From the sequence record DRR378314_197: a DNA stretch of 64,000 nucleotides. One strand, 5' to 3'. The notes below the pieces were generated by a model. It was not told the DNA's origin. It was given only the letters and a program-made list of their open reading frames with translations, and searched no databases. Below, in pieces: positions 45,433 to 64,000 of the stretch (its first letter is position 1; every line of letters starts with the position of its first letter). Position numbers and translations under genes: made by a program.

Positions 45433-45460
45433 AGTCCATCTCTTATTTATTCAGTTTTAT

Positions 45461-46417
45461 TCACGGCGTTTCTGAAACCGCCCCTCTTATTACTCTTTGT
45501 TCATGACGCAATTCGGTCATACAAGTATTCAATGAGTCGTATACTGCGCACAAAAGGAGTGATTTTTCATCCTCTTCTTCCAGTCCCAGTCCGGGCAAAA
45601 GAGTATTCTTACAAACTCGTCGATCTGACCGACTGGAAAAATACACAGAGAAATAAGAGTAAAGCGTATCCCTGTAGCGTTTAAATTCTTCCATGTTACT
45701 CAGGCGATCAGCCATCACGTCAATAATACTATTCATAGTTAAAAGTTTAGGAAAGTCACTAAGATTATCCTGGCCACTAGCTCTCAACTCCTCAGCCGCT
45801 AAAGAGCATTTCTCTAATGTGGGTATCAGAGTGCGACTCACTTTTTTTACATTTTCTTCCAGCTTCTTGTTAGGGGACGAAGAGCCGCTATAGAGAGAAA
45901 TATCACTTGAAACGTCCTCGGAAAACTTAAGGTGTGATGCAGAACCCGCAAGAGCAATAAGCAGAATTTGCGAGTAAATTCTCTCGCTCTGCTCTTCTGT
46001 GCGCGGTCGTATCGACATTAAATAGAGTTGGTCTACCAATTCAGTCCCCTTAGGCCTTTCTAGTGATTGCCCCAGCTCAATAATCTCAGTCGGAGTCATA
46101 CCGTGCACAATGCCACCTACCTCTTTTACTGCATAAGGCAAGGGCCGAAATACTTCCCCATGGGACCGATCAATCACCATCAGGTTCAACGTTTGTATCA
46201 TAGCTTCGTAGTCGGCTTTAGTCGTCGTGTAAGAAAGCTCGTCCAGCGACTGTGCTAATTTTTCATGAGAAGTTGTATCCAGAGTGGCATCCGGAGAACT
46301 CTGAGCATAAGACTGAGGCGTAAAGCCAAGAACGCCTATCAGGAACGCTCCGAACATAAGCTGAGAACTACATTTTAAAGCAGCAGACATTAATGTATCC
46401 GATAAAAAATTAGGCAT
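45461..46417 (-). CDS. Hypothetical exported protein
   Basis: GGAGG RBS before ATG 46417; signal-like segment ending SYA-Q. Confidence 0.7.
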   Translation of the reverse strand: MPNFLSDTLMSAALKCSSQLMFGAFLIGVLGFTPQSYAQSSPDATLDTTSHEKLAQSLDELSYTTTKADYEAMIQTLNLMVIDRSHGEVFRPLPYAVKEVGGIVHGMTPTEIIELGQSLERPKGTELVDQLYLMSIRPRTEEQSERIYSQILLIALAGSASHLKFSEDVSSDISLYSGSSSPNKKLEENVKKVSRTLIPTLEKCSLAAEELRASGQDNLSDFPKLLTMNSIIDVMADRLSNMEEFKRYRDTLYSYFSVYFSSRSDRRVCKNTLLPGLGLEEEDEKSLLLCAVYDSLNTCMTELRHEQRVIRGAVSETP

Positions 46418-46483
46418 CTTCAGCCTCCTGTTTTCCAGCTTCACACTCTATAACTTACATCCACAATCGCATTGCTGCCGCTA

Positions 46484-47350
46484 TTATTTTATTTCAGAAA
46501 GCAGTTCAGAGTTCGTTACTAAGTTTCTTACGCCATGAGCATGGTCTTCTTCAAAAACATTACCTTCGCACCAGTCACCCACCGACTCAATATCAACTTT
46601 GGCGACTTTAGGGCGAACGCTCCAGGTAACCTGAAACGGCGAGCCTTTCTCATTATAGTTGGGGCCGGTAGTTGAACCTGCGTATTGAACTGGCGTTCCG
46701 GTGTCGTCTGGAATATTCACTGCCTGATATAACGCGCCAACCAATTCATGTTCGCTGAGCTCGCCAAAATCACCGGCGTCGTCATCATTCACCAGCACAA
46801 AAACCTGCGCTTCTACTCGCAACTGCGGGTTAACAACAGCATCGTTAAAGCACGCGCCCAAGGTCGAACCTGGTTTTATCTTAGCGGTTGAATAAACGTA
46901 ATGAACTTCAATAGTGTCGCCTGAATAAAGGCTTCCATGTTCGCTTGGGCAAACGTCTGAATCCTCTGGTTCTAGTTCATCCTCAGTTAACTGCCCTGAA
47001 TATTCATAACCAGTAAAATAACCTTTTCCGTCGCCGTTACCTGCGTATTTTGTAAATTCACCGCCTTTGTGCTCGGCATTCTTGTGGAAATGAATATTGC
47101 ACAGGTTCATCTCAGAAGACTCTGGTGCCGCGTTAAAGTTAAGAGTATTGCTACCATTAAAAGAGTCAATGTCACGCGGTGACTGGGGACCAAACCCTTT
47201 CCCCTCAGTATTTTCCACTAGGTTAAGCCGCTGTTGCTCAATAACTTTATCGGACGCTTTCTCATGAGCGCCAGACTGGTCATTCTCAGCGGCAACACTA
47301 AAGGGTAATACAACTAGAATTGCCAGCGTAAAAAGCTTATTCGTTTTCAT
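46484..47350 (-). CDS. Exported delta-class carbonic anhydrase-like protein
   Basis: QSPRDID, NLCNIHFHKNAEHK, TIEVHYVYS, YAGSTTG and HAHGVR motifs; signal peptide; GAGGAG RBS before ATG 47350. Confidence 0.8.
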   Translation of the reverse strand: MKTNKLFTLAILVVLPFSVAAENDQSGAHEKASDKVIEQQRLNLVENTEGKGFGPQSPRDIDSFNGSNTLNFNAAPESSEMNLCNIHFHKNAEHKGGEFTKYAGNGDGKGYFTGYEYSGQLTEDELEPEDSDVCPSEHGSLYSGDTIEVHYVYSTAKIKPGSTLGACFNDAVVNPQLRVEAQVFVLVNDDDAGDFGELSEHELVGALYQAVNIPDDTGTPVQYAGSTTGPNYNEKGSPFQVTWSVRPKVAKVDIESVGDWCEGNVFEEDHAHGVRNLVTNSELLSEIK

Positions 47351-47455
47351 GGGCTTACTCCTCAATGAGAGTGGCATCACCCCAAATTCCGGAGTTACTT
47401 GGTATTCCATCTGCTAGAATAGTCGCTCACATCTGTATGCATTTCAATATATGGA

Positions 47456-55032: not shown

Positions 55033-56181
55033 ATGAGCAGTACTTTTTATATTCCAGCGGTCAATATTATTGGCGAGAATGCCCTTAAAGATGCGGCTAC
55101 GCAAATGGACAACTATGGCTTTAAACAAGCCTTGATAGTCACCGACCCCGGCATGACCAAACTGGGCGTTACTGCCGAAATCGAAGCCCTGCTCAAAGAG
55201 CATGGAATAGACAGCCTAATTTACGATGGCGTACAACCCAACCCGACAGTAACGAACGTGAAAGCCGGGTTAGATGTTCTGCAGAAACATCAATGCGATT
55301 GTGTTATTTCACTAGGTGGAGGTTCAGCTCACGACTGCGCCAAAGGTATAGCCCTGGTTGCCACTAATGGCGGGCATATTAGTGACTATGAAGGCGTTGA
55401 TGTCTCGAAAAAGCCACAACTGCCACTCATTAGTATTAATACCACCGCAGGCACAGCGTCCGAAATGACCCGCTTTTGCATCATTACCGATCCGGAACGC
55501 CATATTAAAATGGCAATTGTCGACCAAAATGTGACACCAATTCTGTCGGTTAACGACCCAAGGTTAATGGTCGGTATGCCTGCCAGCTTGACTGCAGCAA
55601 CAGGCATGGATGCGCTGACCCATGCCGTTGAAGCCTATGTATCTACCGACGCTACGCCGATTACCGATGCCTGTGCCATAAAAGCCATAGAGATTATCCG
55701 GGACAATCTGCACGAAGCGGTTCATAACGGAGCGAATATGGAAGCTCGTGAGCAAATGGCTTACGCACAGTTCCTGGCGGGTATGGCGTTTAACAATGCG
55801 TCTCTGGGTTATGTACATGCCATGGCGCACCAACTCGGCGGGTTCTACGACTTGCCGCACGGTGTCTGCAACGCGGTTTTATTGCCTCATGTGCAACGCT
55901 ACAACAGTCAGGTTGTCGCACCGCGCCTGAAAGACATTGGTAAAGCACTGGGCGCAGAAGTACAGGGATTAACAGACAAAGAAGGGGCTGACGCTGCTAT
56001 TGCCGCCATTGTAAAACTATCTCAAAGCGTCAATATTCCGGCTGGTTTGGAAGAATTAGGGGCAAAAGAAGAGGACTTTAATACATTGGCAGACAATGCC
56101 ATGAAAGACGCTTGTGGCCTGACTAATCCAATTCAACCCAGTCACGAAGACGTTGTTACTATTTTTAAAGCGGCTTTTTAA
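55033..56181 (+). CDS. Iron-containing alcohol dehydrogenase (YiaY/AdhB-like)
   Basis: [29 protein letters not shown] and [16 protein letters not shown] motifs. Confidence 0.95.
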
Positions 56182-56269
56182 CCGGAGTCTTTTAAGCTTA
56201 GCCGTCCGACATCGGACATAGCTATAGTTTATTGTACTGTGCTAACAAAATCCTATACCTGCGGCTACA

Positions 56270-56716
56270 TTAATGTAGCCGCGAATACGCTGATGTATCA
56301 TATCCAGCAACGGTAGTCCCATTCATAGGCATAGTTTGTTCCTCTGTTTCCTTGTACGTAAACATGAGTTGTCGCAACTTGCAGCCTTCGCGAAGCAGAG
56401 CTATAGCGGCCGGATGATCTGACGAAAGCGTATTCTGTAACTGCTGAAAATTGTGTAATGCCCGACTTAACAGAGAAACGCAGCAATTCACGCGATTTTG
56501 ACGATTATATGTCTCAGACAGATTCTGCACCGCAATTGACAAGCAAATAATAACCTCGCTAGCCTGCTCATGCTGGTTTTTCAGGATATCACTCAAATGT
56601 CCTCGTAACAGAAGAATACTATTCATGTAGTAATGATTGGCATTTTGCCATTGTCCCTGCTCAAACTCATAATTCCCCATACGCTGTAACATTTTCCAAT
56701 TCTGTATCAGTTCCAT
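56270..56716 (-). CDS. DUF2753-like helical protein
   Basis: W....GN..FEQGQW..A..YY and SIAVQNLSE patterns; divergent from sodA; AGGAGG RBS. Confidence 0.65.
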   Translation of the reverse strand: MELIQNWKMLQRMGNYEFEQGQWQNANHYYMNSILLLRGHLSDILKNQHEQASEVIICLSIAVQNLSETYNRQNRVNCCVSLLSRALHNFQQLQNTLSSDHPAAIALLREGCKLRQLMFTYKETEEQTMPMNGTTVAGYDTSAYSRLH

Positions 56717-56764
56717 AATAACCTCCTGCGTTACTCATCAGCATGCCTTGCAATTTAATTAAAT

Positions 56765-56789
56765 GCAAATGATAATGATTACCGTTAAC
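56765..56789. promoter_or_regulatory. Overlapping Fur boxes upstream of sodA
   Basis: GCAAATGATAATGATTACC (56765-83) and GATAATGATTACCGTTAAC (56771-89), each 15/19. Confidence 0.87.
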
Positions 56790-56812
56790 TTAAAATTAAT
56801 CAGGAGTAAACT

Positions 56813-57421
56813 ATGTGCTTTAAATTACCTGCGTTACCCTACAACTACGATGCACTTGAGCCTCATGTCGATGCCATGACAATGGAAATTCACCATCAGC
56901 GACATCACCAGACCTATGTCAACGGTCTGAACCAGGCACTGGCCGAAACCCGTTACGAAAAATGGGACTTATCTGAACTGTTACGACAAATTGAGAGTAT
57001 ACCTAGTAATATGCAGTCTGCTGTGCGTAATCATGGTGGTGGCCATGCTAACCACTCATTGTTCTGGCAAGTTATGTCACCTCAGGGCGGTGGCGAACCC
57101 ACGGGCAATCTGGCTAAAGCCATAGAGACCGACATTGGCGGCTTTAAGGCCTTTCAGGAACAATTCACTCAGGCTGCGGTCAGTCGGTTTGGTAGCGGCT
57201 GGGCCTGGTTAGTGATTAATGCCAACGGACAACTTGAAATAACCAGTACAGCGAATCAAGATAGTCCATTAATGGATGGACTGACTCCCATACTCGGGCT
57301 GGATGTTTGGGAACACGCTTACTATTTAAAATATCAGAACAAACGTGCAGACTATATTGCAGCATTTTATGAAGTGATTCACTGGCCGGAAGTTGCCAGG
57401 CGTTTTGAGGAACATGAATGA
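56813..57421 (+). CDS. sodA: Superoxide dismutase, Mn-type
   Basis: [15 protein letters not shown] (Mn-type GG), NQD and DVWEHAYY motifs. Confidence 0.93.
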
Positions 57422-58311
57422 AGGTAATGGAATTATTTCAACCGGGTTGGCGTCTTGGAAGCAAGCTACTCGGTTGGTTCGTCCTGGTTTTGGGCGCAGG
57501 CTATGGTTTATATCAGCTCATTCTGTTAATGCAGAATCAGGACCATGTACGCTACGCGTTTTATGCCGGAATGGTAGCGGCTGGAGCCACGGCTGCGGGT
57601 ACCCTTCCCGCTCTTTTCTCTCGTGGATTATCAACTCGTTTACATGCTGCAATATTGGGGTTTGGCGGCGGAGTTATGCTGGCAGCCAGCATTTTTTCTC
57701 TCATTGTACCGGCGTTAGATCTATTCGAAATAGCAGCACAAACCGCTTGGCATGCGCCGCTAAAAGTGTCTGCGGCTATACTTTTGGGCTCTTTTTTAAT
57801 GATGGCTCTGGAGCGCAGTGTCCCACATGAGCACTTTATTAAAGGCACTGAAGGACGCCAGGCACTGATATTGAAACGCAGTTGGTTGTTTGTTTTTGCA
57901 ATTATTCTGCACAATATTCCTGAAGGGTTGGCAATAGGCGTAGCTTACGCCGGCGATGACACAGTCGGAGCATCCACTCTGGCAACCGGTATTTCTGTGC
58001 AAGACATACCTGAGGGCTTTGTCGTAGCCATGGCTCTGTTGGCCGCTGGTTATAGCCGTAAGATAGCAATTGGTGTCGGGATGTTATCCGGTTTGGTGGA
58101 GCCATTAATGGCTGTTATTGGCGCCATTGCATTGAGCAATTCAGCTGTGCTGCCCTGGGGGCTGGCTATGGCCGCGGGTGCTATGTTATTCGTCATCAGT
58201 CATGAAATGATTCCCGAGTCACACAAACAAGGCCACGAAATGTCTGCAACGAATGGCCTTATGCTGGGGTTCGTGCTGATGTTTGTGCTGGATACAGCCT
58301 TGGGTAGTTAG
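57418..58311 (+). CDS. ZIP family metal transporter (GufA/ZupT-like)
   Basis: [17 protein letters not shown] and HEMIPESH motifs; ATGA overlap with sodA. Confidence 0.92.
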
Positions 58312-58395
58312 CGCTCAGCTTAACTACCTGAAGCGAATTCGCATTTTCTTTTAAATAAGTAATCGTTTCCGTTTTCATAGCATTTTTCACAAAGC

Positions 58396-58716
58396 TTATT
58401 TATCGAGTAACCACATGACAAAGGCGTACAAGTTGGAAACGAGATAAAGAGCGCACAAAAGCAGCGAGACAGAATAAACCGAAAACAGTACCACTTTGGG
58501 TACTACTTCCCTGACTAGCCAAAGAAAGCCTGATGCAGCCAACCAACAAGGCAATGCCGCAATCAATGCAAAAATCACAACTTGCATATACTCATGGCGA
58601 TACTCAGCACCGGGGTTCGCGTAATATCCGAATGTGTACTTGCCTGCGACTCCGAGAAAAAAGAGTCCGCCTGCGGCAGCCACGAAAGCCAGAATCATCC
58701 ATATTTTCGAGAACAT
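58396..58716 (-). CDS. Small three-TM hypothetical protein
   Basis: AAGGA RBS; three hydrophobic segments. Confidence 0.7.
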   Translation of the reverse strand: MFSKIWMILAFVAAAGGLFFLGVAGKYTFGYYANPGAEYRHEYMQVVIFALIAALPCWLAASGFLWLVREVVPKVVLFSVYSVSLLLCALYLVSNLYAFVMWLLDK

Positions 58717-58830
58717 AAGTTATTCCTTTAACTATAATAGTTAACATTACCAGTAACTAAGGTTACCTACTTTTTCGAGAGACTGCAGTGGCCTTTACAT
58801 TGTTGGAGTGAATGGTTAGCGGCTTCCTCA

Positions 58831-59412
58831 TTATGTATCCGTTTTTCCTATCCACTTTTGAATCGTCGTAGGTTCATAACTGGCGAATCGATCGAGCAGC
58901 GTTTCGGGAGCAGAATCTACAAGCAACATTGAGCGGTGCGGCTGTTTGACGAACTGCTCTGCTACGGCATGATCAAAAAATGCAGTTAACGAATCAAAGT
59001 AGCCTTCTATATTGAGCAAGCCGCAAGGTTTTTTATGGAATCCAAGCTGAGCCCATGTCCAAATTTCAAAAATCTCCTCAAGAGTCCCTATCCCTCCGGG
59101 CATAGCAATAAACCCGTCCGACAGATCAGCCATCAGGGTTTTGCGTTCATGCATAGATTGCGTTACGTGTAGCTCGGTCAGGTTTGGGTGCGCAACTTCT
59201 TTCCGCACCAATGCTTCGGGAATGACGCCAACGGCCTCTCCTCCAAGTTGCAACACAGTATCGGCAATCAGCCCCATAATACCAACACTCGCGCCACCAT
59301 AAACAAGCTTTAGGTTTCGGTTTACAAGTGTTCTTGCAAGATCACGGGCCGCTCTGGAGTAGGCTTCCTGTCGACCGGGATTTGAACCACAATATATACA
59401 GATGCTCTTCAT
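58831..59412 (-). CDS. LOG family nucleotide phosphoribohydrolase (TIGR00730-like)
   Basis: YCGS, VYGG..GIMG, MHERK and PGGIGTLEE motifs. Confidence 0.93.
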   Translation of the reverse strand: MKSICIYCGSNPGRQEAYSRAARDLARTLVNRNLKLVYGGASVGIMGLIADTVLQLGGEAVGVIPEALVRKEVAHPNLTELHVTQSMHERKTLMADLSDGFIAMPGGIGTLEEIFEIWTWAQLGFHKKPCGLLNIEGYFDSLTAFFDHAVAEQFVKQPHRSMLLVDSAPETLLDRFASYEPTTIQKWIGKTDT

Positions 59413-59538
59413 GGCGTTACTCGTTCGCTAGAAAAAAGCGTGTTCAATGATGAAAATAGTAGCTCCGACAATGCCGAAGGAAACGATAAAGTTAAAAGTT
59501 CCAGGCCAGCCAATACGCTTCTGAATAACATTATTTCT

Positions 59539-61101
59539 CTATCGGCATTCATAGCTATCGGCGGAAGCCTCATCCCCTCCAGTATAATGCGGGTACTCCG
59601 GATAGCTGCAAAGCTTGGTGCTGGCGGGCTCTGGCTTTTCGCGTGAGGCGGTGACATTGCCCGGCGCGTCGTCATTTTCCACCCAGTCGACGACCGCACT
59701 CAGCAGATCAAAGGAATCGTAAGTATTGTCCCCACCGGCGCAGTGACCCATCCCGGGTACAAAATAGAACCGGCTGGCATCGTCCCAGTTTTCATTGGCA
59801 CTATCAGCCCGCTGATAAAATCCGAGCGTGTCATAGGCGGAGAACCAGGCATCGCTGACCCCGTGATAGAAAAGGATCTTTCCACCGCGATCGAGAAAGG
59901 TCGAAAAGTTAGTCCAGCCGTAGCTATCGGTGCGCCCCTGCATCGGATCATTGCGCAGCCGCGCGTCTTCGGCATCAATATCAAGCTCAGTCTGGCCTGC
60001 GCTGGCGCCGGGCGAGAAAAAGTTCTCACCAGGAATAAAGGTCATACCGCCCTCAATCATGCCCGTGTCGACGGGAAAGGCAGGATAGATCTCGTAACCA
60101 GCGCCATTTACGAGCGGCGCAAATGCCTTATCAATCGCGTCTGCCTGCTCCTGTGATATGCAAGCGTCGTCGTCCCCTGATTGACATACGAGCAGGCCCG
60201 GGTCGAAGTCGCAGCCCTGAACATTGGCAATCACTCCGTCCTCAAGGCCATCCAAACTGTCGCATTGCGCCAGAAGCCCGTCATAGACCGTGCGACGTTC
60301 AGCCGGTGAAAAGGCACTGCCGACCTGCGGATTACCTTCGTCGTCACGCGGTGCTATCTCGTTAAAGGCCGCGACAGCCTTACGTAGAGCGAAATTTGAA
60401 TGTCCCGTACGCATAGCCGGCGCGCCGACAACGGCGCCGTCAAACAGCATGGGGTAGCGCTGCGCAGCCAGCATGCTCTCACGCCCGCCGGTAGAGCAGC
60501 CTGAAATATAGGTATGATGCGCCGCCTGCCCGTAATAAGCCTTCGCAATGTCTTTCCCCAGTTGGGTAACCTTGGCCACGGACTGCCCAGCGAAATCAAG
60601 CGCGGCTTGCTGATCTGCCATAAAGGACGCGTCGAAACCGCCCTTGCCCTTGTGTCCGCCATCGGTGGATATCACCGCAAAGCCGCGCGCAAGAGCTGGC
60701 GTGTCGCCAGCGGCATTACCGCCAAGCGGAGGGTGCACTGTGCCATTCAGTCCTCCACCGCCCTGAAACAGAAAGCGGCCGTTCCAGTTTTCAGGCATTG
60801 CCAACGCGAAACCGAGACCATAGGTTTTACCGTCCGCGCCCTCACGTTCATTGCTCAGGCCTTCAACATAACAATGATCGGGAAGCTCCACCGTCGTGTT
60901 ATCGGGACCGCCTCCGAAGCTGAATGAACCGGCCGATTTCATCTCTGCACTGGTGATTTCAGTGTTCGCTATTTCAAACTCAGTCAATGCCGCACAGGAC
61001 ATTTCAGTCTCCGTGGCATCGCCACCGAAAGCATTATTTGCTCCACATCCCCCGACAGCAAGCGCAGCCAGTGCAATCATGAATCGATTCATTGTTTTCA
61101 T
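59539..61101 (-). CDS. Tannase/feruloyl esterase family lipoprotein
   Basis: Lipobox VGGC, WNGRF..GGGG, STDGGH, GCSTGGRE, HGVSD and PGMGHC (CS-D-HC catalytic set). Confidence 0.92.
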   Translation of the reverse strand: MKTMNRFMIALAALAVGGCGANNAFGGDATETEMSCAALTEFEIANTEITSAEMKSAGSFSFGGGPDNTTVELPDHCYVEGLSNEREGADGKTYGLGFALAMPENWNGRFLFQGGGGLNGTVHPPLGGNAAGDTPALARGFAVISTDGGHKGKGGFDASFMADQQAALDFAGQSVAKVTQLGKDIAKAYYGQAAHHTYISGCSTGGRESMLAAQRYPMLFDGAVVGAPAMRTGHSNFALRKAVAAFNEIAPRDDEGNPQVGSAFSPAERRTVYDGLLAQCDSLDGLEDGVIANVQGCDFDPGLLVCQSGDDDACISQEQADAIDKAFAPLVNGAGYEIYPAFPVDTGMIEGGMTFIPGENFFSPGASAGQTELDIDAEDARLRNDPMQGRTDSYGWTNFSTFLDRGGKILFYHGVSDAWFSAYDTLGFYQRADSANENWDDASRFYFVPGMGHCAGGDNTYDSFDLLSAVVDWVENDDAPGNVTASREKPEPASTKLCSYPEYPHYTGGDEASADSYECR

Positions 61102-61200
61102 CCTTTTTTATTGCTGCCTCAACAACCGACGGCATTGCTTGGTGTCTTTGGTTTCTTCAGGTTCCAGCAAGTAAAATGCTCAATATAATATTTCGTACCA

Positions 61201-61416
61201 CTAAAAAATATACTTTACGACTATTGAGCCTACCGCAAGAACGGCACCGAAAATGGCTAGAAGATACTTATTTTTGTACGAACTGTAGGCCATGAGAAAA
61301 TAACCTATGGCTCCAACTATATTTCGTAAATGCTGTCCATAAAATGTAAAGTCAATAAGATTAGTCAATGCTAATAGAGCGAAAAAAACGACAAAAAATT
61401 TATTAGTTGCTGTCAT
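61201..61416 (-). CDS. Small membrane protein, probable former cassette gene
   Basis: 71 aa from ATG 61416; hydrophobic, AT-rich; follows a GTTAGAAC core-like site. Confidence 0.6.
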   Translation of the reverse strand: MTATNKFFVVFFALLALTNLIDFTFYGQHLRNIVGAIGYFLMAYSSYKNKYLLAIFGAVLAVGSIVVKYIF

Positions 61417-61448
61417 CCTGATTTTAATCTCCAGTTTGAATGATTGAG

Positions 61449-61530
61449 TTCTAACGCTCACTATTCAGGTGATTAACTTGATGAGATTCGAGCACCGATG
61501 TCACGTTATGTTCTAATTTTTTTATACGCC
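61449..61530 (-). other. Degenerate attC remnant
   Basis: Minus strand ends ...GAGC-GTTAGAA (61455-61449). Inverse-core-like GGCGTATAAA at the upstream stop and ACATAAC at 61511-61505; internal pairing poor. Confidence 0.4.
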
Positions 61531-61839
61531 GGACTCAATTTTTAAATATCTTTTCTTGCCGAATGAGATGCAATAAAACGGTAAAAACACAAATTTAAAA
61601 AAGTTAGACGCAAATGAGTTCTTAACTACAATTTTCCCTGAATGAATGTCACCAACACGAAACTCAGGACTTGAACACCAATCAATTACGGCCTTCAGAG
61701 TTTCGCTACCGTCAGGTAGAGTTATCACTTGCGTTGTACCACGCTTTATCACTGCTATCTCTTTACCGTCCACAAGTAAATGATAATCACGAGCCATGTC
61801 AGCAAACTGCTTTGGCCTTTTTACTTCGATTTTCATCAC
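61522..61839 (-). CDS. Cassette-encoded hypothetical protein
   Basis: 105 aa (RDYHLLVDG...AVIDWCSS); GAGG RBS right after the attC core GTTATAT. Confidence 0.75.
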   Translation of the reverse strand: MMKIEVKRPKQFADMARDYHLLVDGKEIAVIKRGTTQVITLPDGSETLKAVIDWCSSPEFRVGDIHSGKIVVKNSFASNFFKFVFLPFYCISFGKKRYLKIESGV

Positions 61840-61851
61840 AACCTCTATGGC

Positions 61852-61907
61852 ATATAACGTTTCAATCAGCCGACGCGTCAGCGGTCGGCTGTACTGACTT
61901 GTTAGAA
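61852..61907 (-). mobile_element. Integron attC site (56 bp)
   Basis: Minus strand: R'' TTCTAAC, AAGTC, L'' AGTACAGC, CGACCGCTGACGCGTCG, L' GCTGATT, GAAAC, R' GTTATAT; extra unpaired bases at the expected positions. Confidence 0.92.
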
Positions 61908-63034
61908 GATTGTTGAATGTATTCCGCTATTTGAGAAAATACCAGTAGCCCAAGTAACGATGCCTTTTTATCAAACTTGTCAATTGTGCTTGCTCCATGA
62001 GCAACGGAATGCCTGCTGACCGGATTATCATCATCTGTAACGCTAAAATCCTTAAAGTAACACTCTTCTAGATAGCGTTTGAATTTATCAGGAATAAAGG
62101 TCGTGAGAGCCGAAATGCCTCTGAGGGTCTTTTCGGTAATATGCTCGACAAGTACTTTTTGCTGACGCCCCTCCTTTTCAGGGTTGTCTGCAACGAAGTC
62201 TTTCCTAATTAAAGCTTCAATCTTTGGATATATAATTGACGATGAGCTAACAAAATCATCTGCTTTATGCCGAGAAAGCGCCGACTCCAAAAAGCAAATG
62301 AAAGGTGAAAGGTATTCATCATTACCCCATATTGGCTTTCTTTCCTCTATATAAAAAATAGCATCACTCTCTATTTTATTAATAAGCTCATCTATATTCC
62401 ATTCAGCCCTTGCATAACTAATAATTGATTCCACAGTTGAAAACTTCAGTGCATAGAATGGAAACCAATTTTGCCTTAATATACTATCCCAGTCTGAGGC
62501 AGATATTTTATGGATAGACCCAAACGATAGATAGGAAAAGTATGACCCTAAAAGCTTTTCTACATCGTACTCAATTTTTCTATTCAATTGATCATCTAAA
62601 GGCGAAAAGTCAAAAATAAACGCTTTATCCCAGCCAAGTGATAGTATGCAAAAATAGGCTTGGTCTTCAGGAAATTCAATACCACTTAACTGTATGCGTT
62701 CGAAACCTGAAATATCATCCTTTCTGAGAGCTTGCCCTTTTTCAATATTTTTTGCTTTAACGAATGCCTGTCCATAAACTTCAACTTCATTAATATATAC
62801 CTTGGCCTTCAAGTCTTTAGAAATTAGCACAACCATACTTTTTATCTCGCTAGGCTGAAACTCCTCTTCAAGCATGGACAAGATGGTCTGGGGAAAGCCA
62901 TTAAGATATTTTAGATGAAGATCACCATCTTCTGTTGAGGTTGCACCAGAGACCTGAACCTGAACTTTTTCGCCTCCTTTTGCGACAGAGACGGAGTAGC
63001 CAGCAATTCTCTCTTTTAACTGAACCTCATACAT
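61862..63034 (-). CDS. Cassette-encoded protein with C-terminal HEPN-like R-x4-H motif
   Basis: 390 aa; YPKIEALIR...VSRHSVAHG; AT-rich; bounded by attC sites. Confidence 0.78.
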   Translation of the reverse strand: MYEVQLKERIAGYSVSVAKGGEKVQVQVSGATSTEDGDLHLKYLNGFPQTILSMLEEEFQPSEIKSMVVLISKDLKAKVYINEVEVYGQAFVKAKNIEKGQALRKDDISGFERIQLSGIEFPEDQAYFCILSLGWDKAFIFDFSPLDDQLNRKIEYDVEKLLGSYFSYLSFGSIHKISASDWDSILRQNWFPFYALKFSTVESIISYARAEWNIDELINKIESDAIFYIEERKPIWGNDEYLSPFICFLESALSRHKADDFVSSSSIIYPKIEALIRKDFVADNPEKEGRQQKVLVEHITEKTLRGISALTTFIPDKFKRYLEECYFKDFSVTDDDNPVSRHSVAHGASTIDKFDKKASLLGLLVFSQIAEYIQQSSNKSVQPTADASAD

Positions 63035-63064
63035 GCAGTATCTTCCCTACCTATCGAATTAATC

Positions 63065-63165
63065 TTCTAACGCCCGCCTAACAGGCGCAAAATGCTTGGC
63101 TAAAATTAGGAGCGAAGTGACGCAAGCCAAGCATTTTGCATCCTTTGTTGAGGCGTTTGTTAGCT
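63065..63165 (-). mobile_element. Integron attC site (101 bp, ends resembling Vibrio cassette repeats)
   Basis: Minus strand: R'' AGCTAAC, AAACG, L'' CCTCAACA ... L' TGTTAGG, CGGGC, R' GTTAGAA; inner 15-bp IR GCAAAATGCTTGGCT/AGCCAAGCATTTTGC. Confidence 0.94.
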
Positions 63166-63404
63166 ACCGATACTACAAGAGTAAAAAAAACATTTTCTTT
63201 AGTGAAATCAATATTTATACCCGAACTAGTAGAGCCTTTGTAAAGGCCAGATGAAAATTCATTAATCGTTACTTGGTACTCGGAGCCCGCAATATCTTTG
63301 ACGATAGCAATCGAGCCGACAGACAGGCGCTTTTTAGCTAGTTTGTTGCCCGAACCCATGAATGGGATTTCATCAAGGTTGGAATTTTGTAAATCTAATT
63401 TCAT
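63078..63404 (-). CDS. Cassette-encoded hypothetical protein (second gene; reads into attC)
   Basis: ATG at 63404 overlaps the upstream stop (ATGA); stop lies inside the attC. Confidence 0.6.
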   Translation of the reverse strand: MKLDLQNSNLDEIPFMGSGNKLAKKRLSVGSIAIVKDIAGSEYQVTINEFSSGLYKGSTSSGINIDFTKENVFFTLVVSVANKRLNKGCKMLGLRHFAPNFSQAFCAC

Positions 63405-63592
63405 TGACACGATCCTCCCAACGGTTTGTACTCATTATCTTTGTTATTCCACGTTTGTATACAGCCCGTCCAGCGATCTGCTCTAACCTCGAATCCTAAT
63501 CTTGAACCCATATATTCATAACGAAACATAACGGAGAAAATAATAATCCCTAACAGCAATACGATTGCGAGTACTAATGTTGAATTTTTCAC
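63401..63592 (-). CDS. Cassette-encoded small single-TM protein (first gene)
   Basis: AAGGAG RBS plus GTG; N-terminal TM then FRYEY...DRWTG. Confidence 0.7.
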   Translation of the reverse strand: MKNSTLVLAIVLLLGIIIFSVMFRYEYMGSRLGFEVRADRWTGCIQTWNNKDNEYKPLGGSCQ

Positions 63593-63608
63593 TACATCTC
63601 CTTTAGGT

Positions 63609-63663
63609 AGCTAACGCCTAGCGAACCGGCGGCGTAGCCGTCGGGTTACGCGTTTTGTTAGCC
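63609..63663 (-). mobile_element. Integron attC site (55 bp)
   Basis: Minus strand: R'' GGCTAAC, AAAAC, L'' GCGTAACC, CGACGGCTACGCCGCC, L' GGTTCGC, TAGGC, R' GTTAGCT; L'' pairs with L' except for one extra T. Confidence 0.92.
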
Positions 63664-63726
63664 TCGACTTTGTTTCACTTCAAATTGCGACGTATCCTGC
63701 CTTCGTTGTTCTTCTTATTGGTTGGC

Positions 63727-63999
63727 TCAACCTTCAGGCTTCATCAACTCCAGTCCGAATAGCACAGCTGAACGGAACTGTTCATCCTCTTCTAAAGGTT
63801 CTTGGAGAATCCCACCTACGCACGGCGCACCATAAAGAAGCACCCAGCCTAGTTGCTCGCCATTCGAGGGACCATGTGTGATCTCCAGGCGAACTATTCC
63901 GACCTCCTCTCTGACCATAAGTCTTAACTCGGCCGCGTCTGCGCGAACGAGTGATACGCGGTTACCAGCCCCACCAATGCTGAAAGGTGTTGTCTGAAG
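63727..63999 (-). CDS. 3' part of a cassette gene running off the window edge
   Basis: Frame of the 63727-63918 ORF stays open to the end of the window (LQTTPFSIGGAGNRVSLVRADAAELRLMVREE...). Confidence 0.6.
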   Translation of the reverse strand, partial: LQTTPFSIGGAGNRVSLVRADAAELRLMVREEVGIVRLEITHGPSNGEQLGWVLLYGAPCVGGILQEPLEEDEQFRSAVLFGLELMKPEG

Positions 64000-64000
64000 C

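Follow-up and report, generated by a model that had tools for sequence, protein, structure and literature searches.

A three-cassette attC array, probably a CALIN, at the end of a 64-kb stretch of Idiomarina DNA

Clusters of attC sites that have no integron integrase (CALINs) have been defined as at least two attC sites without a nearby intI gene, with clustering within 4 kb (Cury et al. 2016, PMC4889954). In the part of that paper that deals with them, 279 CALINs are reported, 83% of which have fewer than six attC sites. Few of their cassettes are described there as homologous to known cassettes, most CALINs are stated to be without a recognisable intI pseudogene, and intI loss, rearrangement and insertion at a secondary site are given as possible origins. 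The element studied here lies at one end of a stretch of 64,000 nucleotides from sequence record DRR378314_197 (the whole stretch is called the window below). An earlier note, made from the letters of this DNA alone, had described an integron cassette array with no integrase between positions 61449 and 64000.

The end of the window is best explained as the promoter-distal part of an integron cassette array on an Idiomarina chromosome. It holds three minus-strand cassettes, each closed by an attC site whose bottom strand (the plus strand of the window) folds into a bulged hairpin. Hairpins of this kind are recognised by the integrase IntI, which cuts between G and TT of the GTT core. The cassettes would have been inserted singly as circles, and therefore the first bases of each cassette would be expected to complement the start of its own attC site. 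The row of three sites is almost certainly a real cassette array. This array is probably a CALIN, with the integrase no longer beside it, and intI would then be absent beyond position 64000. Recombination by IntI at these sites and expression of the cassettes are presumed. Idiomarina was indicated as the genus by the sources named for the 90% clusters to which the LOG and ZIP proteins of the window belong. The genus set consisted of 28 Idiomarina species genomes, and the nearest genome to the window was G001.

The three attC sites

The core consensus of attC sites is RYYYAAC/GTTRRRY, and the names of the R and L boxes, as well as the role of the bulged bases, are taken from integron biology. 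Site a (63609-63663, minus strand, 55 nt) closes cassette 1 and has the boxes GGCTAAC (R'') and GTTAGCT (R'), with T as the extra L'' base on the top strand. Site b (63065-63165, minus strand, 101 nt) closes cassette 2 with AGCTAAC as R'' and GTTAGAA as R'; its extra L'' base is a C on the top strand, giving a bulged G on the bottom strand. Site c (61852-61907, minus strand, 56 nt), with TTCTAAC and GTTATAT, closes cassette 3 and is the last scoring site. The gaps between the sites are 443 and 1157 bp, so that all three lie within 1.8 kb. They fall in two length classes, and sites a and c are identical in 37 of 58 aligned columns.

A layout scanner was used that required AAC and GTT cores, 5-nt spacers, and an 8-nt L'' against a 7-nt L' with one bulged base. 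The same layout was found in all three sites: R'' (7 nt, with AAC at its end), a spacer of 5 nt, L'' (8 nt), a variable centre, L' (7 nt), another spacer of 5 nt, and R', which opens with GTT. The R'' and R' cores were of the AAC and GTT types, inverted, and within the range of 50-150 nt. The L boxes paired at 7/7 positions in sites a and b and at 6/7 in site c, and the bulge was the fourth L'' base in each case. The three elements of 56, 101 and 55 bp that the earlier note had placed on the minus strand were recovered at the same places, with the same lengths and with the one extra L'' base that it had reported. Its statement that they sit downstream of co-oriented genes also held in the list of open reading frames (ORFs), where each site stands behind a co-oriented ORF or overlaps its 3' end.

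Single-stranded DNA folding was carried out for both strands of the three sites. The predicted folds contained an R-box stem, unpaired spacers, an L-box stem with the bulge and a terminal stem. The extrahelical bases were located on the '' arm of the bottom strand; the earlier note had named a lack of such bases in the bottom-strand folds as a reason to give up its reading, and they were present in all three. The bottom-strand energies were -14.6, -26.6 and -12.5 kcal/mol for sites a, b and c, against -12.1, -25.8 and -11.5 kcal/mol for the top strand, the bottom strand being slightly more stable in 3/3 sites. The z-scores of the folds were -1.5, -4.5 and -3.2, respectively.

The layout scanner alone was not specific (30 matches in the window, 27 of them elsewhere), and therefore an independent covariance test was built. 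Of 121 genomes of the same family, 83 exceeded the cut-off of the integron integrase model TIGR02249; from 20 of these the array side of intI was taken and scanned for the layout. In these 20 arrays, 246 matches were obtained on the strand expected from the orientation of intI and 103 on the other strand. The bulge was most often found at the fourth L'' base (122 of the 246), as in the window. Filtering on TAAC/GTTA cores and removal of overlaps left 169 sites, 166 of them unique and 108 of them 96-106 nt long. For training of the covariance model, named R1, 61 of the 108 sites were chosen by hand, with a maximum of five per locus, and aligned. RNAalifold showed the R and L stems in this alignment, with changes on both sides in 16 of 20 pairs.

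When the whole window was searched with R1 on both strands (128 kb, E ≤ 10), four matches were obtained. Sites a and c scored 31.1 bits (E 9e-5) and 28.3 bits (E 4e-4), respectively, site b reached 87.4 bits (E 7e-18), and the fourth match, at 18.4 bits, was site b read in reverse. A search of positions 56000-64000 with the filters off gave nothing besides these matches above 8.8 bits. Scoring with an attC covariance model had been proposed in the earlier note; with our own model all three sites scored and no other site of the window did. In a control with six integrase-adjacent loci, all 46 R1 matches at E ≤ 0.01 lay on the expected strand, and only three of the 46 had been training sites. 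Untrained control sites of 56-58 nt scored 29-35 bits, the same range as sites a and c. A search of 56000-64000 with Rfam gave nothing at E ≤ 1, and no attC family was noticed among its matches.

Judged by their sequence, all three elements are genuine attC sites, and the genes that they enclose are genuine cassettes whose boundaries coincide exactly with the crossover points. The case illustrates that a reader working from sequence only can recognise attC sites correctly.

Cassette boundaries, sharing and contents

Crossover takes place between the G and the TT of R', and the last six R' bases therefore belong to the next cassette. For this reason a first strict scanner, in which complementarity of R'' and R' inside one site was required, found site a only. 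The start of cassette 2 reads (G)TTAGCTACC and that of its own attC site GGTAGCTAAC; GTTAGCTACC and GGTAGCTAAC are complementary at 10/10 bases. Cassette 3 starts with (G)TTAGAAGATT, and AATCTTCTAAC stands before and at the start of its own attC site; GTTAGAAGATT and AATCTTCTAAC are complementary at 11/11 bases. The complementary cassette ends pointed out in the earlier note were exact, the first pair being complementary over 10/10 bases as given and the second being longer than it had said. Complementarity between the ends of one cassette was seen in cassettes 2 and 3.

Cassette 3 was the only one found as a bounded unit in different arrays. A scan of species genomes with its 390-amino-acid (390-aa) protein gave one locus, L043, on a contig of a metagenome-assembled genome of an uncultured Alteromonas. 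Positions 39-1316 of L043 were 92.7% identical to window positions 63128-61855 over 1280 columns. In L043, R1 places attC sites before and after the 390-aa gene, with 69.4 and 32.7 bits, respectively; another two follow farther along. The attC sites upstream of the gene are identical in 72 of 107 aligned columns between L043 and the window. The BLAST similarity from window position 63128 on lies within these two upstream attC sites, which differ up to GTTAGAAG, where the close identity at the level of the cassette starts. Downstream, the identity extends through attC c and ends right after CGTTA. As read from this alignment, two different arrays contain one and the same cassette, delimited at the GTT crossover points. 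Cassettes common to Idiomarina and Alteromonas with crossover-exact ends are direct evidence of cassette traffic among marine Gammaproteobacteria.

The single sites also had close counterparts. Site c was identical to the attC site behind the same cassette in L043 at 49 of 56 bases, and to an attC site in an array of the genus genome G123 at 50 of 56. Site b shared 92 of its 101 bases with an attC site in the intI-adjacent array of the same-family genome G058 (L035:10902-11002). The G+C content was 53% in cassette 1, 40% in cassette 2 and 39% in cassette 3, and 47% in the rest of the window. The suggestion of the earlier note that the cassettes came from several donors fits these unequal values, the 37/58 columns shared by sites a and c, and the occurrence of cassette 3 in another genus.

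Cassette 1 (63615-64000, minus strand) is cut by the end of the window and contains an ORF of at least 90 aa (63727-63999, open at its 5' end). One metagenome scan gave no relatives of this partial ORF. Cassette 2 (63071-63614, minus strand, 544 bp) contains two overlapping ORFs on the minus strand. The first (63401-63592) encodes 63 aa with a hydrophobic N-terminus, and its stop codon overlaps the ATG of the second (63078-63410, 108/110 aa), for which only two relatives, of 76 and 61 aa, were found in a search of 5.8 billion clusters. The last 29 codons of the second ORF lie inside attC b (63078-63165), with no stop until its end, and both relatives are shorter. This tail may be a read-through artefact of the attC site or the result of a recent stop loss. 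Cassette 3 (61858-63070, minus strand, 1213 bp) carries the 390-aa ORF at 61862-63034. Its protein has 42 homologues across scattered genera, including ones named from Aeromonas, Marinomonas and Oceanimonas.

No credible family match was obtained for the cassette ORFs in Pfam, PADLOC or NCBIfam, and no resistance gene was found among the cassettes. Promoter-like sites were not in excess in the array (6, against 6.5 in shuffles), and no terminator-like site with a T-run was found on its coding (minus) strand.

In order to characterise the 390-aa protein, sequence conservation and a structure model were used. R341 and H346 (R341-x4-H346) were invariant in 34 aligned sequences; HEPN domains are defined by a conserved Rx4-6H motif in a four-helix domain. 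The AlphaFold model had a mean pLDDT confidence score of 86.5. Foldseek gave no match to this model in the PDB at E ≤ 0.001. In a wide VIA-align comparison of residues 238-380, HEPN proteins were at the top, the best being 2hsb (Z 8.0, root-mean-square deviation 3.3, 119 aligned residues), a Z value that is common for helical bundles. HEPN toxins, Csm6, AbiA and AbiV were also in this list. It is plausible that the modelled C-terminal helical domain is a HEPN domain, and the 390-aa protein can be regarded as a candidate RNase toxin or abortive-infection gene product. The N-terminal domain was beta-rich and had no structural match.

Integrase, origin and flank of the array

The earlier note had seen no integrase in the window. 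Likewise, neither intI nor a remnant of it was found in the 64 kb by tblastn with three IntI proteins (best E 1.2). Across the genus, a full TIGR02249 match was present in one of the 28 genomes (G143), compared with 83 of 121 in the family. This integrase (L041 1456-2469, on G143:C12) is the class 1 IntI1; a cluster of 4144 sequences, named from Enterobacteria, is 100% identical to it. It may be a true resident of G143 or contamination. Within 1.5 kb upstream of it, R1 detected no strong attC site. By this search, a native full-length intI is present in none of the 28 genus genomes. A 161-aa fragment of intI was found in G123, about 6 kb from an attC array with six R1 matches on the opposite strand (L049, G123:C22:106000-122000), and together they look like a decayed integron.

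Of the 28 genus genomes, 23 had matches to R1 at E ≤ 0.01, and many of these matches lay in clusters. It is because the genus shows one full integrase (the class 1 IntI1), one fragment, and attC sites in 23/28 genomes that the window array is read as a CALIN. In G001 no intI was found, but only Xer-like matches that skip model positions 180-239. Its array (L008 1704-4462; G001:C1:1701700-1704462) has four attC matches of 16.4-27.8 bits on the plus strand, each behind a co-oriented ORF. G123 also has a second array (L048, G123:C11:793500-801364). It comprises four R1 matches (16.5-34.7 bits) that share the strand of the window array and are found 1.5-6 kb past the same ZIP-transporter gene. The series is interrupted by an IS4/5 transposase gene and reaches the end of the contig. 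The LOG gene of the window was considered as a shared flank of this array and rejected, the 191-aa ORF found there being unrelated. From these genome scans, arrays without an integrase are the rule in Idiomarina, and the locus of the window holds an array in at least two species.

Two side observations concern the arrays of the genus. The G001 array (L008 1704-5019; G001:C1:1701700-1705018 with its end) lies between a divergent gene of the metallo-beta-lactamase fold and a TonB-dependent receptor gene. Four R1 matches of 48 nt with an equal score of 33.9 bits occurred in three genus genomes (G139:C12:1902-1949, G080:C2:119097-119144, G080:C3:158828-158875 and G136:C1:2234381-2234428); these could represent a short type of attC that is conserved, or a different conserved hairpin.

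Several points weigh against the reading as a CALIN array. Scoring is modest for site a (E 9e-5) and for site c (E 4e-4), and the calibration of R1 is rough. The training sites were picked by a scanner that demands the layout, and by hand, so that R1 leans to that layout. Between site a and the end of the window lie only 337 nt, so that intI may be present a few cassettes further on; its absence covers one side (61 kb) only. G001, which is 97% identical in the shared part, carries other genes at the array locus. Full-length matches of the 105-aa gene that follows site c sit outside any array in three genus genomes (G129, G130 and G133), and 61201-61851, counted apart from the cassette DNA, is either decayed cassette DNA or flank.

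Among the other explanations, a complete integron comes closest to the CALIN reading. The window would then show the distal part of a complete integron, with more cassettes, attI, the promoter Pc and a divergent plus-strand intI beyond 64000. The orientation fits, as minus-strand cassettes put attI and intI to the right. A full intI is also common in the family, and the G123 fragment, about 6 kb from an oppositely oriented array, shows that the genus once had native integrons. A complete integron is nevertheless rather unlikely, though possible, in view of the 0/28 genus genomes with a native full-length intI (the sole full match being class 1 IntI1), the lack of intI in the nearest genome, and the attC arrays without intI that are the rule in the genus.

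It is less probable still that the array became a CALIN by another route. In this case an integrase acting in trans, such as one brought in by a passing mobile integron, would have inserted the cassettes at a secondary chromosomal site that is not an att site, and no resident intI would have been lost. Secondary-site insertion is among the CALIN origins listed in the part of Cury et al. 2016 (PMC4889954) cited above, and efficient IntI-driven insertion outside att sites is reported in the abstract of a preprint (10.1101/2022.09.11.507474). One genus genome has the class 1 IntI1, and G001 has no array at this locus. Against this route, the same-strand array of G123 by the same ZIP-transporter gene (4 R1 matches, 16.5-34.7 bits) points to an old, fixed array site, and a fragment of intI is present in the genus. 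That the elements are palindromes arisen by chance, intrinsic terminators or an intergenic repeat of the REP type is highly improbable and close to refuted: any imperfect palindrome behind a gene can resemble a terminator, the bare scanner matched 27 other places and the fold of site a is ordinary for its composition, but no T-run terminator lies on the coding strand, R1 matched nothing else in 128 kb, site b is identical at 92/101 bases to an attC of an intI-adjacent array, the L043 homology begins and ends at GTT cores, and the complementarity of the cassette ends extends over 10 bases in one cassette and 11 in the other.

If the array is indeed a CALIN, its cassettes would be expressed only from chance or internal promoters and could still be mobilised by an integrase supplied in trans. 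A speculative and rather doubtful extension is that Idiomarina keeps and turns over arrays at fixed chromosomal sites without a native integrase. Gain and loss would proceed via integrases in trans (e.g. class 1 IntI1) or by homologous recombination of whole arrays, and the orphan arrays would act as a common reservoir for genes of the toxin or defence type, the HEPN-like cassette being an example. The ZIP-transporter locus could be one such site, with an array in the window and in G123 and other genes in the 97%-identical G001. With many arrays and almost no integrase, Idiomarina is a convenient natural case for how arrays without an integrase persist and change. The window adds one documented cassette array to a genus in which integrons have hardly been described.

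The distal end of the array was also inspected. Directly after attC c there is an ORF of 105 aa (61522-61839, minus strand) with no scoring attC behind it. Its homologues in G129, G130 and G133 have 72-79% nucleotide identity, and no attC was found within about 2 kb of them. A remnant of this gene was present at the distal end of the G001 array, with 84% identity over 135 columns; the end of that array consists of a glyoxalase-family ORF followed by this remnant. The 105-aa gene is either a terminal cassette without attC or flank DNA. Further on, a small hydrophobic ORF (61201-61461, minus strand) encodes 71 aa from the ATG at 61416 or 86 aa from the GTG at 61461. It has no attC behind it, and its 90% cluster has 2 members. 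A fourth attC site was considered at 61450-61511 (minus strand, R'' ACATAAC, R' GTTAGAA), near the start of the region delimited in the earlier note. It was rejected with shuffle-like folds (z -0.4/+0.3) and no R1 match at E ≤ 10 even with the filters off. Six of the seven bases of its R'' agree with the complement of the crossover core before it.

Between the array and the conserved chromosome lies a strain-specific flank (58642-61200). It contains a tannase/feruloyl esterase gene (59539-61101, minus strand, 57% G+C) and a LOG-family gene (58831-59412). A DNA search over the 28 genus genomes gave no match for either gene, and R1 with the filters off detected no further attC sites around them. 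With its 57% G+C in a genome of 47%, the tannase/feruloyl esterase gene resembles a foreign insertion in its own right. Up to position 58641 the window is syntenic with G001 at 97% identity. Elsewhere in the window, at 45434-47383, there is a two-gene insertion compared with G001, consisting of a 327-aa ORF without family and a 308-aa delta-carbonic-anhydrase-like protein (PF10563, E 2e-79).

Comparison with known systems

Mobile class 1 integrons share the recombination chemistry and the attC architecture with the window element. They differ from it in that the window has no intI1, no resistance cassettes and no transposon context; in the genus, IntI1 was found only in G143.

The sedentary chromosomal integrons of the same family, with intI-adjacent arrays in G008, G015, G025, G058 and others, are much closer. 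They have the same attC consensus (TAAC-AAG... / ...GGC-GTTA), the same classes of attC of about 100 and about 56 nt, and the same order, with an ORF that has no promoter and then attC. One of their sites agrees with site b at 92/101 bases. In contrast to the window array, theirs adjoin an intact intI and are long (5-24 scanner matches on the expected strand per 12 kb). The window array has three sites of mixed classes and no integrase in view, and it is missing at this locus in G001. A sedentary integron should present a long homogeneous array that is fixed in the species; two length classes, and absence at the G001 locus, were found instead.

The array of G001 resembles that of the window in several respects. 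It has four attC matches on one strand behind co-oriented ORFs, in a genome without intI, and includes the remnant of the 105-aa gene. It differs in its chromosomal place, about 0.85 Mb away in G001 coordinates, and the two arrays have no scored cassette in common.

The best agreement was with the CALINs. Three attC sites within 1.8 kb satisfy the limit of at least two within 4 kb given in the definition (PMC4889954). The cassettes of the window are few and without resistance genes, the attC sites are heterogeneous, and no intI is in view. The only difference is that the absence of intI in the window array covers one side (61 kb). By its sequence features the element fits the CALIN description, as set out in the cited part of Cury et al., in every respect tested, and the window array is an ordinary example of an already known kind of element.

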